Shown one piece after another: positions 37,544 to 43,109 of a stretch of 64,000 nucleotides of DNA; position 1 is the first letter of the stretch; every line of letters starts with the position of its first letter. The DNA is taken from NCBI GenBank assembly GCA_951406725.2, contig OX597815.1, forward strand, positions 52,700,001 to 52,764,000. Reading direction: 5' to 3'. Under the pieces are notes generated by a model that worked only from the letters and a program-made list of their open reading frames with translations, had not been told where the DNA came from and searched no databases. The position numbers were made by a program, and so were the translations under genes. Origin of the DNA: Octopus vulgaris. Taxonomy: Eukaryota.

Positions 37544-40409
37544 ATATTGTTATATTTCGGAATGGTCATATTGCCAGTTTAGTCAATAAAAACACACGCA
37601 CTATATATTTGGTGTTATTTTGCTTCAGTGATATTTATTTTTTACATTAATCTTAATCTTATTTCGGCCAAAGTTCTTTCGTCACACTCCTGTGACCGCA
37701 TCAGTGGTCCTTTGTTTTCTTCTCACTTACTTGTGTCTCTCCTTACTAACCGTCAGCCATTTTGTATTTCTATTGTATGTCTTCATTTGCGCATGCTTAT
37801 ATCTCTATGTGCGTCTATGTTTATTTAGTGTGTGTGTGGGGGGGATGCCTGTAATATTTGTATCTTCTGGTTATATACATTCTTGTAATTTGTATTTTGT
37901 TTTTGTTGTTGTTGCTTTTGTTCTAATTTTGTTCATGTGTTTACATCCACCCATTATCATCATTACATATGCTTGTATGTATGTATAACAACAATATTAG
38001 TAATAATAATAATAAATCTAATCGAAAAAAAAAAAAAAAAAAGAATATACATATACACATATATATATACATACACATACATATACATATATATATATAT
38101 ACATATATACACACATATATACACATATACATATACATATATATACACATATACATATATATAGATATTCATTTCTATTTCTTTAATTACCTGTGTATTT
38201 ATTATGTTTGCAGGATCCACTATTGTCATATGTTGTGGTGTGCGCTATTGCTCCATTCTAGTTTTCTATTCAGGCTAGGTTTATTTTCTATTATATGTGT
38301 AGCTTCTGTAATTTGTCTAATTGTTGCATCTGTTCTATGTGTGGACAATATCTTAATCTCTATGTTATTGATTGATCCCCCGTGTTCTTGTTCGGCGTGT
38401 TGGTACAGAATCGATGAGCTTTTACCTTCCTTGAGTTGTCTCCAATGTTCATTCACCCGCTCACCAATGCTTCTTGCAGTTTCCCCTACGTATGTTACTG
38501 TCTTGTTACTGCATTGTCCCTCTATACATCTTATACTATAGACCACATTTCTGGCTTTACAGTTCGTTTGTGGGCTAAATCTACATACAGTGCAATAGTT
38601 ATCCGTACAGAGAGTTCTACTAAAAGGATAGCTTCTACCAATTATAGATCTGATAGGGTTGCCTGGCTTTTCAACAACCTTAATTCTTAGTTTAAGTTTA
38701 TCTAGGGTCCTTCTAAAGCGGTACGCTAGTTCACCTCCAGGGGTGGTGTCAACGAACATGACACTCTGGTATTTATGGCTATCATACCAAGAGTTGGCCT
38801 TCCCTATTTTCTTTTTGTCCTTTCTATAGTGTTCCATGACTTGTTCCTATAGAGTGGGCAAATCCCATTCCTATCATTACATAATATATTATCAAATTTT
38901 TTCATGGCTCCTTTGTATACTCTGATCCTTTCTTTATGGCTGTAACCTGAGAACTGCATGCGGTGAATGAAATACTGTATGTGTCTCTTTAATTCTGTAG
39001 GCTCGCACATGCGTGACACATTTCTCATTATTCTGACGAGGTCTGCCATCAAAATATTGAATTTGGCATTGCCCGCAATGGCTGAGTTCCGGTGGATCAG
39101 GTATTTTGAGGCCATAGGTTTTGCATAGTATGAATGAAGGATTTGGGTTTGGGTTTTATTTTTCACAATTTCTAGCCAGAGTTCAGTGTCTAGTACTGGT
39201 AGTCTATGGTTGGGGTGTTTAGTGGGGTAGTCTATTGTGACCTTAATACTCTGGTGGATGGAGTTAGCTATTTGCTGGATGCTCTCCATAGTATTAGTTT
39301 CTATTACTATATCAACAGTACTCTCTTGTGGGGGTGCCTTTACTACTATATTGATATCATCAACATAGCGAGAGTACATGTTTACGAGTATGGATTTCTG
39401 CAGTAGGCATTCTTTAAGCCTTCTGTCCCACTATACCATGAAGAGGTTGGCCACATCACCAGCGATACTAACACCGATGGCTGCCCCCTCGTCCTGGGCA
39501 TATATTTTATTATTAAATTTAAATGTGTGGCCTTTTAGGGTAACTCTTATACTAGCTCCTAGTGCATGTGCGATCATTTTCTTTACCTGATGGACATTTG
39601 CGGGGCTCCGTATGGCTCTGGTCCATCCGCGCCATCTTTCTATATGTGTCTTCCTAGCCATAGAAGTAATTGTAGGTGGTCTACCTCTTAAACATCTACT
39701 GGGGCAGAAACTACTAAGATTATGTTTATCTAAGTATTTACTATTATATGTCAGTCTAAGTAGGAGGCCCAGTTCTTCTGTGTCGACATTACAGAACTCC
39801 ACCTGGCTCTCGTTGATCATCTCCACGCACTTCTCCACTGCAAAATCTACGTCAATCGATGGGTATAGGGATACCACATCCATGCTACCTACTATACATC
39901 CTGTCAAGTCACAAGTTTTGTTACAGTCACTGATCCTGCTTAGGAGATCTTCTGTGCTGTCACACACATCAGGTGACATCCTGATTATAGGGCGTATGAT
40001 CATTGAGAGGAAGTAGGAGATTCTGTAATTGCTAGCGATATTCGCTCCACAGACTGGTCTTGTTGGTGGTCCTGCTATAGGGTCAGTAAAACCTTTATGG
40101 TCCTTGCGAAGTCCATACAGTGCCGGGATATCATTGTTCCAGGCTTGGAAATTCTTTGCAGTACGTTTCTGAGGTCCCAGAACAATTGTCCACATCATCA
40201 TGTGGGCATTGAGGACCTTTTCTCTCTCCTCATGCGCCTGTACAGTTGTTACTTTTGTATTGGCGATATGAGGTTGCATTGCCTGGATGTAGTTCGGTAA
40301 GCTGTCTATTGACATCCTGCCGGACTTATCCGTGGGAAGGCATATCACCTCTCCGTTCCTCGTGCGCTGAATGAGCTTCTGTAGGCCACATGCAGGTTTA
40401 ATCCCTAGT
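37544..40409 (-). mobile_element. Penelope-like element (Naiad-like), left copy, 5'-truncated
   Basis: ICLPTDKSG (DKG motif), YGLRKDHK, RPVCGA, GSMDVVSLYPSI, GAAIG, YSRYVDD, LPVLD, CTDNYCTVC, NVVYSIRC..YVGETARS..ERVNEH. One stop and one frameshift. PLE assignment is firm; the Naiad label is from motif recall. Confidence 0.9.
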
Positions 40410-43109
40410 TGGACAATTGTTCTGGGACCTCAGAAACGTACTGCAAAGAATTTCCAAGCCTGGAACAATGATATCCCGGCACTGTATGGACTTCGCAAGG
40501 ACCATAAAGGTTTTACTGACCCTATAGCAGGACCACCAACAAGACCAGTCTGTGGAGCGAATATCGCTAGCAATTACAGAATCTCCTACTTCCTCTCAAT
40601 GATCATACGCCCTATAATCAGGATGTCACCTGATGTGTGTGACAGCACAGAAGATCTCCTAAGCAGGATCAGTGACTGTAACAAAACTTGTGACTTGACA
40701 GGATGTATAGTAGGTAGCATGGATGTGGTATCCCTATACCCATCGATTGACGTAGATTTTGCAGTGGAGAAGTGCGTGGAGATGATCAACGAGAGCCAGG
40801 TGGAGTTCTGTAATGTCGACACAGAAGAACTGGGCCTCCTACTTAGACTGACATATAATAGTGAATACTTAGATAAACATAATCTTAGTAGTTTCTGCCC
40901 CAGTAGATGTTTAAGAGGTAGACCGCCTACAATTACTTCTATGGCTAGGAAGACACATATAGAAAGATGGCGCGGATGGACCAGAGCCATACGGAGCCCC
41001 GCAAATGTCCATCAGGTAAAGAAAATGATCGCACATGCACTAGGAGCTAGTATAAGAGTTACCCTAAAAGGCCACACATTTAAATTTAATAATAAAATAT
41101 ATGCCCAGGACGAGGGGGCAGCCATCGGTGTTAGTATCGCTGGTGATGTGGCCAACCTCTTCATGGTATAGTGGGACAGAAGGCTTAAAGAATGCCTACT
41201 GCAGAAATCCATACTCGTAAACATGTACTCTCGCTATGTTGATGATATCAATATAGTAGTAAAGGCACCCCCACAAGAGAGTACTGTTGATATAGTAATA
41301 GAAACTAATACTATGGAGAGCATCCAGCAAATAGCTAACTCCATCCACCAGAGTATTAAGGTCACAATAGACTACCCCACTAAACACCCCAACCATAGAC
41401 TACCAGTACTAGACACTGAACTCTGGCTAGAAATTGTGAAAAATAAAACCCAAACCCAAATCCTTCATTCATACTATGCAAAACCTATGGCCTCAAAATA
41501 CCTGATCCACCGGAACTCAGCCATTGCGGGCAATGCCAAATTCAATATTTTGATGGCAGACCTCGTCAGAATAATGAGAAATGTGTCACGCATGTGCGAG
41601 CCTACAGAATTAAAGAGACACATACAGTATTTCATTCACCGCATGCAGTTCTCAGGTTACAGCCATAAAGAAAGGATCAGAGTATACAAAGGAGCCATGA
41701 AAAAATTTGATAATATATTATGTAATGATAGGAATGGGATTTGCCCACTCTATAGGAACAAGTCATGGAACACTATAGAAAGGACAAAAAAGAAAATAGG
41801 GAAGGCCAACTCTTGGTATGATAGCCATAAATACCAGAGTGTCATGTTCGTTGACACCACCCCTGGAGGTGAACTAGCGTACCGCTTTAGAAGGACCCTA
41901 GATAAACTTAAACTAAGAATTAAGGTTGTTGAAAAGCCAGGCAACCCTATCAGATCTATAATTGGTAGAAGCTATCCTTTTAGTAGAACTCTGTACGGAT
42001 AACTATTGCACTGTATGTAGATTTAGCCCACAAACGAACTGTAAAGCCAGAAATGTGGTCTATAGTATAAGATGTATAGAGGGACAATGCAGTAACAAGA
42101 CAGTAACATACGTAGGGGAAACTGCAAGAAGCATTGGTGAGCGGGTGAATGAACATTGGAGACAACTCAAGGAAGGTAAAAGCTCATCGATTCTGTACCA
42201 ACACGCCGAACAAGAACACGGGGGATCAATCAATAACATAGAGATTAAGATATTGTCCACACATAGAACAGATGCAACAATTAGACAAATTACAGAAGCT
42301 ACACATATAATAGAAAATAAACCTAGCCTGAATAGAAAACTAGAATGGAGCAATAGCGCACACCACAACATATGACAATAGTGGATCCTGCAAACATAAT
42401 AAATACACAGGTAATTAAAGAAATAGAAATGAATATCTATATATATGTATATGTGTATATATATGTATATGTATATGTGTATATATGTGTGTATATATGT
42501 ATATATATATATATGTATATGTATGTGTATGTATATATATATGTGTATATGTATATTCTTTTTTTTTTTTTTTCGATTAGATTTATTATTATTATTACTA
42601 ATATTGTTGTTATACATACATACAAGCATATGTAATGATGATAATGGGTGGATGTAAACACATGAACAAAATTAGAACAAAAGCAACAACAACAAAAACA
42701 AAATACAAATTACAAGAATGTATATAACCAGAAGATACAAATATTACAGGCATCCCCCCCCACACACACACTAAATAAACATAGACGCACATAGAGATAT
42801 AAGCATGCGCAAATGAAGACATACAATAGAAATACAAAATGGCTGACGGTTAGTAAGGAGAGACACAAGTAAGTGAGAAGAAAACAAAGGACCACTGATG
42901 CGGTCACAGGAGTGTGACGAAAGAACTTTGGCCGAAATAAGATTAAGATTAATGTAAAAAATAAATATCACTGAAGCAAAATAACACCAAATATATAGTG
43001 CGTGTGTTTTTATTGGCTAAACTGGCAATATGACCATTCCGAAATATAACAATATCTGTTTCAACACACGACTTCACATAAAAAATCTTGCACAACAAAT
43101 ATTTAAACG
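40410..43109 (+). mobile_element. Penelope-like element (Naiad-like), right copy, with an extra ~55-bp 3' tail before (TA)n
   Basis: Reverse complement of 37544-40192. ORF pieces at 40371-41171, 41223-42002 and 41962-42375 encode RT, thumb and GIY-YIG. Confidence 0.9.
42889..42933 (+). ncRNA. Variant minimal hammerhead-like motif in the PLE 3' region (mirror copy at 37666-37710, minus strand)
   Basis: ggacca-CTGATGC-g-gtcac aggagt gtgac-GAAAG-aa-CTT-tggcc. A9 is replaced by C and stems I and III are short. Confidence 0.45.

Follow-up and report, generated by a model that had tools for sequence, protein, structure and literature searches.

A long head-to-head insertion of a Penelope-like element in Octopus vulgaris, the usual form of a family with one-sided tails

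In a 64,000-nucleotide stretch of the Octopus vulgaris genome (GenBank assembly GCA_951406725.2, contig OX597815.1, positions 52,700,001 to 52,764,000; hereafter the window, in whose own numbering positions are given), a palindrome at 37544-43055 is one young insertion of a Penelope-like element (PLE) into a (TA)n repeat. The two arms of this palindrome are probably separate products of reverse transcription, one begun at each end of the cut target, that were joined midway through a 2-base microhomology. What the family itself displays is that an insertion has one tailed and one untailed end, that the tail is placed independently of arm length, that both arms come from one source haplotype, and that they meet through microhomology at junctions specific to each locus. 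The window palindrome is real and ordinary in kind, at the long end of the family range, and the interest of the case rests on the family-wide tail rule and on an insert in the reverse transcriptase (RT), less on the locus. The thousands of young insertions in this family constrain how PLEs make inverted copies and one-sided tails.

Structure of the palindrome

Aligned globally, 37544-40192 (2649 bp) and the reverse complement of 40410-43055 (2646 bp) are identical in 2641 of 2651 columns (99.6%). The differences are three substitutions (37583, 39677, and 39739), all of them changes in the left arm, and four indels (1, 3, 2, and 1 nt), the same count that had been reached in an initial reading made from the letters without database searches (the sequence-only reading). 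Two of the indels lie in homopolymers of the untranslated region (UTR), and the remaining two are frameshifts private to each arm, one of 1 nt near 38812 on the left and one of 2 nt near 41992 on the right. An in-frame TAG is common to both arms (41169-41171 on the plus strand, 39431-39433 on the minus strand), and because each arm combines this shared stop with a frameshift of its own, neither codes for the whole protein.

On the scale of the full element unit, the left half covers positions 1744-4602 and is untailed, the right half covers 1963-4656 and is tailed, and the two overlap by 2 bp. The duplicated part of the left arm (37544-40192, minus strand) is a 5'-truncated PLE copy with one nonsense codon and one frameshift, and it ends at the untailed site, unit position 4602. 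It extends into a 217-bp spacer (40193-40409, minus strand; unit ~1746-1962) that is colinear with the element body in other copies; the translation frame bears out the earlier view of this spacer as the upstream continuation of the left copy's open reading frame (ORF). The inversion junction, a 2-bp microhomology, TG, at 40410-40411, occurs once in the assembly. From there the right arm (40410-43055, plus strand; unit 1963-4602), also 5'-truncated, carries the same nonsense codon and its own frameshift, and it is followed, at this end only, by a 55-nt tail (43056-43110, plus strand) whose last 1-3 letters merge with (TA)n. The sequence-only reading was thus right that the right copy has about 55 extra bases and that both ends sit in (TA)n. 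Those bases open the next tandem unit (ORF nt 27-81), and their interpretation as a longer 3' UTR is rejected. The left target repeat spans 37526-37543 and the right one, of 52 copies, 43110-43214, and the flanks beyond them are unrelated to each other. These observations support the earlier inference of one insertion event with its junction at the 5' truncations. The copy, which lies on contig 2, owes its length solely to two cDNAs that reached about 2.7-2.9 kb each.

A nearly identical direct repeat of ~34 bp stands on either side of the element (37480-37513 and 43212-43245), its right copy continuing into what we take to be a common repeat of the short interspersed element type. We rejected it as a target-site duplication: several bases differ between its copies and it stands some way from the left end, and any duplication inside (TA)n is unreadable. 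Short-read contigs from four runs contain the family's colinear form and none crosses the window junction; they are uninformative on the locus because their source individuals are unknown and such contigs drop rare forms.

Frequency of the head-to-head form and the tail rule

The sequence-only reading treated the structure as exceptional and proposed scoring other copies for inversion at the 5' end. A genome search returned 2478 candidates, of which the best 40 were scored, and 38 other loci, biased to long copies, were fetched. At 36 of these 38 longest loci an inverted arm is present at the 5' end, with arm lengths from ~25 bp to over 2.7 kb, so that the form turns out to be the family's usual product, and it is one already in print (PMC8557442, PMC3846280). 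Both arms are at least as long as those in the window at four other loci (L014, L015, L020, and L053/L054), the last of which (L053:769-9001, L054:1-5855) is an 11-kb palindrome whose arms are both longer than one unit. Sixteen substitutions at L053/L054 are clustered in 250 bp of the left upstream partial unit.

Counts of ends and sites were made with exact sequence patterns, which gave 1744 tailed and 2550 untailed ends. The first 180 Mb of contig 1 hold 156 clusters of such matches, among them 39 head-to-head pairs, the arrangement of 39 of the 40 multi-end clusters. From the 116 unpaired ends we sampled 40, and 21 of these have a clear inverted arm. An exact pattern for an internal site matched 222 times; among the first 100 matches listed, a count by eye gave 17 pairs within 10 kb in minus-then-plus order and none in the reverse order. 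The head-to-head form thus makes up roughly two thirds of insertions, very short arms being missed.

The two ends of an insertion are not interchangeable. A tailed end is joined to an untailed one in all 39 head-to-head pairs of the contig 1 census, with no tailed-tailed or untailed-untailed pair among them, whereas with free choice between two start sites about half of the pairs would be mixed. The same pairing was found at 35 of the 36 inverted loci among the longest copies, at 11 of 11 further loci, and at all 18 readable both-sided loci among the 40 sampled unpaired ends, where three inverted loci were unreadable; these sample sets overlap in part. At L020 the tail runs into an assembly gap. 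The tail was on the longer arm 20 times and on the shorter arm 27 times (47 long loci, window included; P = 0.38). At L010, L077, L085, L087, and L091, the inverted arm consists only of the last 23-35 nt of the tail and has nothing in common with the main arm. Because nearly every insertion, long or short, is tailed on exactly one end, the two halves are likely to have been copied separately. One of these loci also shows two adjacent insertions in one (TA)n (L010:4195-4660), each with one tailed and one untailed end.

Junctions and source of the arms

Overlaps of 1-5 bp are present at 27 of 37 junctions; one other is blunt, and the remaining 9 have inserted or mismatched bases. BLAST ends were used on at least one side of 9 junctions. 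The mean overlap at the 28 non-negative junctions is 2.6 bp, a value reached in 0 of 20,000 simulations; 0.67 bp is expected by chance. All 37 breakpoint pairs are different, and since the window junction also occurs only once in the assembly, junctions must be made anew each time. A family-fixed junction inherited from a palindromic master is ruled out on the same grounds.

The haplotype comparison covered the 29 palindromes with at least 700 bp of overlap, 50,753 bp in all, with masking of simple repeats and of 15 nt where each arm starts. In this set the arms differ from each other at 0.97 positions per kb but from other loci at 4.64 per kb. The partner arm is the nearest sequence in 15 palindromes, tied in 10, and not nearest in 4, and the arms agree at 92 of 94 family-polymorphic sites, while 47 private differences are retained between arms in 50.8 kb. 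Variants shared by two arms were also followed through the genome. The window TAG codon is TGG in 222 exact matches elsewhere and TAG at one other locus, L043, on a different haplotype, which rules out L043 as the source of the window copy; L037, considered as a sister with the same stop, is excluded because its stop is different. Three other variants of this kind were tested genome-wide: two recur at other loci, and the third is confined to the two arms.

Some loci bear on the template. At L006 a variant is present in both arms and absent from the upstream tandem repeat, and therefore both arms copy the same unit; at L033 a variant is common to all three copies. Either arm can exceed one unit, and both do at L053/L054. 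Together, L006 and L053/L054 indicate that both arms copy the same unit, either as one RNA read twice or as two RNAs from one source. L006 and L053, whose upstream and main units are different, give no support to a circular monomer template.

Element identity and the RT insert

The assignment of the element to the PLEs by the sequence-only reading was borne out by a match to the GIY-YIG endonuclease and by the predicted RT fold, with telomerases in all of its 14 best structural matches. In L001, a natural full copy, the unit is 4576 nt long and has a single ORF of 1309 amino acids that runs from an Asn-rich N-terminal part through the RT and a C-x4-C-x2-C linker to a GIY-YIG endonuclease with CCHH residues. 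The first 26 nt of the ORF are also the last 26 nt of the pseudo-long terminal repeat (pLTR), and the tail consists of the 55 nt that follow in the ORF. In the window, the RT stretch from motif 3(A) to motif 4(B) lies at 40716-41108 (plus strand), the linker and endonuclease at 41990-42375 (plus strand; mirrored at 38226-38612 on the minus strand), and the 3' UTR or pLTR at 42376-43055 (plus strand), the last 26 nt of which open the next ORF (ATG at 43030). A partial tandem pLTR, an inverted 5' copy, and a one-sided tail are all present, as in endonuclease-bearing PLEs. The nearest protein is 98% identical and carries an Octopus vulgaris label.

Pfam searches gave a GIY-YIG match (PF01541) at E = 3e-4, just below the curated cutoff, and the motif was also read against Fig. 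S2 of PMC8557442; the RVT_1 match to the RT is weak (E = 0.0016). The predicted RT model has a predicted local distance difference test score (pLDDT) of 89, and the top 14 rows of its VIA-align structural search are TERTs (best Z score 16.5, root mean square deviation 3.6, 278 aligned), while sequence searches of the PDB retrieved neither a PLE nor a TERT. An Rfam search of the pLTR gave no hammerhead match. By eye, a hammerhead-like CUGAUG-stem-GAAA motif can be seen at 42889-42933; its seventh core base departs from the core consensus, and its fold z score is -1.19.

The distance from RT motif 3(A) to motif 4(B) sets this lineage apart. It is 126-133 amino acids in all 44 in-clade rows measured and 58-62 in five canonical hits; only rows with both motifs found were counted, 8 hits being unmeasurable by pattern and 1 chimeric gene model excluded. 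The additional ~70 residues are filled in all 48 aligned proteins (24-50% identity to the query), include conserved E, G, R, and W residues, and are predicted at a pLDDT above 90. Their position is that of the telomerase insertion in the fingers domain (IFD), and the likeness is positional only, because the fold search yields no per-residue match. According to PMC8557442, canonical PLEs with a C-terminal endonuclease lack an IFD and Naiad and Chlamys have 20-40 extra residues. A literature search found no large IFD stated for a C-terminal-endonuclease PLE, older PLE reviews, Repbase, and supplements being outside that search.

With regard to clade, the endonuclease lies C-terminal to the RT and not N-terminal, as it does in Naiad and Chlamys; the C-x4-C-x2-C linker, invariant in the 48 aligned proteins, separates the element from Penelope and Poseidon, which lack a CX2-5CxxC linker; and CCHH residues, a DKSG rather than a DKT motif, and a 4576-nt unit rather than one below 3 kb separate it from Hydra. 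With Neptune and Nematis it shares the order of RT, CX2-5CxxC linker, and C-terminal GIY-YIG with CCHH, as well as the (TA)n target (PMC8557442, Fig. S1 and S2), and the linker spacing (7 amino acids after CxxC) resembles, by eye, Nematis rows and not Neptune rows. Unlike canonical PLEs, for which PMC8557442 states no fingers insertion between RT3 and RT4, the window element has 130 amino acids there. A quick tree, built with no named reference proteins, separates the lineage from the five canonical hits by no more than a long branch. The RT insert could be the mark of a lineage not yet described and overlooked by annotation: RVT_1 is found in 3 and missed in 45 of its 48 members. A host gene model, P0041, labelled dynein regulatory complex subunit 6-like, holds a 97%-identical RT piece, by exonization or annotation error, and sequencing runs under six organism labels contain 66-84% of the element's words.

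Mechanism and alternative explanations

In the mechanism that we favor, the two arms would likely start at different RNA sites, one at the tailed and one at the untailed start, each site being used once per event, as the tail rule would need. A top-strand primer at the left target end and a bottom-strand primer at the right end would give the antisense-then-sense order with 3' ends outward. Each cDNA would stop at a random place, after which the cDNA 3' ends would anneal over a few bases and be filled in. Activities of this kind are described (PMC11167929) for a lizard PLE whose protein cuts and extends both target strands, starts reverse transcription at two RNA sites bounding the tail, and is predicted to dimerize. 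Paired use of the two start sites is not stated in the literature covered by our search, which left aside older PLE reviews, Repbase, and supplements.

Several observations weigh against separate priming at both target ends. Two of the 38 longest copies and 19 of the 40 sampled unpaired ends have no clear inverted arm, and L003, the sole exception among 36 loci, carries the tail on both ends. The window TAG and one of the three other arm-shared variants are confined, within their haplotype, to the two arms; such variants could fit a source missing from the assembly, and they fit copying between arms as well. At L012 (4343-4463), a short inverted arm of an older pLTR haplotype is joined to a young main arm through a 2-bp microhomology; no other locus indicates so clearly that one insertion can combine two different templates. 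Two-site, two-strand priming in the octopus family would be carried over by analogy from another PLE's biochemistry: the lizard element is a Poseidon, tested on its own ORF-pLTR junction, and the compared portions of PMC11167929 draw no link to inverted copies. Finally, a free hairpin randomly trimmed on one strand would give the same end pattern.

That last possibility is the strongest competitor, though we judge it unlikely. A hairpin would form first, by self-priming of antisense RNA or by fold-back of a tailed cDNA, and the endonuclease would then trim the tail from one strand while the ends join the target. Such a hairpin accounts for the shared haplotype and for private variants common to both arms, and tail-only short arms are possible under it if the long arm is trimmed. 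It is also in line with PMC8557442, which attributes the tail to endonuclease resolution of an intermediate, and with the antisense self-priming proposed in PMC3846280. However, staggered cutting with a fixed polarity should link the tail to one class of arm, long or short. The split is 20 to 27, so trimming without strand preference is needed; moreover, the junctions are 1-5-bp microhomologies between unrelated positions, not element palindromes. A trimming step is not needed under separate priming, because RT start sites at both ends of the tail have been shown in vitro for another PLE (PMC11167929).

It is very improbable that the arms were inserted independently, or that they arose by a later inverted duplication and gene conversion has kept them alike. 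The (TA)n repeat is a recurrent target, L010 does hold two adjacent insertions, the L012 arms are discordant, and gene conversion could account for arm-shared private variants. Against this stand the lack of (TA)n at the junction, the head-to-head order of 39 of 40 multi-end clusters, the concordance at 92 of 94 sites, the strict exclusion of a second tail, and the private differences that the arms keep (47 in 50.8 kb).

The sequence-only reading had inferred that the nascent cDNA snapped back or switched template. A target-primed cDNA that folds back and copies itself would explain arms that are 99.6% identical with a private TAG in common, and a short junction microhomology. Plain snap-back cannot make the window locus or the tail-only loci, because the fold-back copy must be a subset of the spacer-bearing strand, yet here, as at 27 of 47 long loci, only the shorter arm has the tail, and at five loci the inverted and main arms have no sequence in common. 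The model is contradicted unless an extra jump onto an antisense tail template is added, and we give it scarcely any credence. An equally slight chance attaches to a fold-back read chimera or assembly artifact, which a near-perfect 2.65-kb inverted repeat and the assembly gap at the similar locus L020 might suggest, but which is at odds with unrelated flanks on the two sides, a one-sided tail derived from the element, substitutions and frameshifts that one arm has and the other lacks, and an end rule that recurs at dozens of loci whatever their size.

Separate priming may extend beyond this family. We propose tentatively, as something possible rather than probable, that every PLE insertion is two-ended, with an asymmetric protein dimer priming the target ends from two start sites of one RNA region, one each, and that the octopus family belongs to an unnamed lineage of C-terminal-endonuclease PLEs with a telomerase-sized fingers insertion. 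If so, one two-ended step would account at once for the one-sided tail, for the inverted copy, and for the fact that neither depends on arm length, points that the PLE papers compared leave undefined. The family-wide counts rule out plain snap-back and provide a sharp test for the existing in vitro system.

Other features of the window

A separate, near-perfect palindrome of 258 bp lies at 37193-37450, 90 bp left of the element. It belongs to a repeat family (best 40 of 1114 candidates scored, at 83-90% identity, plus half-length matches at 98%) and is either MITE-like (miniature inverted-repeat transposable element) or made of stubs of another PLE. Another palindrome, of 249 bp and 95.6% identity, is at 6498-6746. 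A fragment at 10624-11061 (minus strand) resembles the zinc linker and GIY-YIG start of another PLE, with long spacing and no Pfam match. An RT of the long interspersed element (LINE) type (RVT_1) occupies 25482-27023, an in-frame 33-bp tandem of 8 copies lies in a LINE C terminus at 31391-31656, a degenerate interstitial TTAGGG array is found at 48436-48591, and a Tc1/mariner transposase is at 61434-62162. No host gene was found among the window ORFs of at least 130 amino acids (three scanned), which is still compatible with an intron location.

This family seeds the genome with multikilobase, near-perfect inverted repeats that would be possible sources of double-stranded RNA (dsRNA). The sequence-only reading proposed that a read-through transcript of the window palindrome would fold into such dsRNA, which might then feed small-RNA production and be edited by ADAR. 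The host belongs to a group of animals noted for extensive RNA editing. Locus-private variants show no A>G excess (21 A>G and 14 T>C, P = 0.73), and RNA editing of the templates is rejected on this basis; 43 G>A against 26 C>T is not significant (P = 0.09).

Comparison with known systems

Twin priming in L1 elements is similar to the model proposed here in that a second primer comes from the other target end, an inversion results, and microhomology is found at the join. L1 inversions copy nonoverlapping parts of one RNA; in the octopus family, by contrast, the starts of the arms lie no more than 55 nt apart and one stretch is copied twice.

Drosophila Penelope copies also carry long inverted repeats in the element body that could give dsRNA, and small interfering RNAs match these regions (PMC3681739), so that a dsRNA reading of long inverted PLE copies has a precedent and might apply to the window locus.

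The in vitro system closest to our observations is PAc, a Poseidon element of Anolis (PMC11167929). It has in common with the octopus family two fixed end points inside the ORF start that bound the tail, an AT-rich target, and cutting and extension of both strands. It belongs to a different clade, the octopus start sites are at ORF nt 26 and ~81 whereas the main PAc site is at ~111-118, and the portions of that paper compared do not treat inverted copies or the pairing of two sites per event.

Canonical endonuclease-bearing PLEs (PMC8557442, Fig. 2, and, for Pen2a_Av, PMC3846280) share more features with the octopus family: partial tandems forming pLTRs, an adjacent inverted 5'-truncated copy, a one-ended tail, first ORF codons held in the pLTR, AT-rich or (TA)n targets, and an Asn-rich stretch that brings the ORF to ~1300 amino acids. 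The head-to-head arrangement is described there as the most frequent one (PMC3846280). The octopus tail is 55 nt long compared with 30-40 nt in canonical PLE insertions, and octopus inverted copies reach 2-5 kb. Unlike the descriptions of canonical PLEs in these sources, the tail rule, the arm lengths, the microhomology, and the haplotype sharing of the octopus family are counted over many loci.

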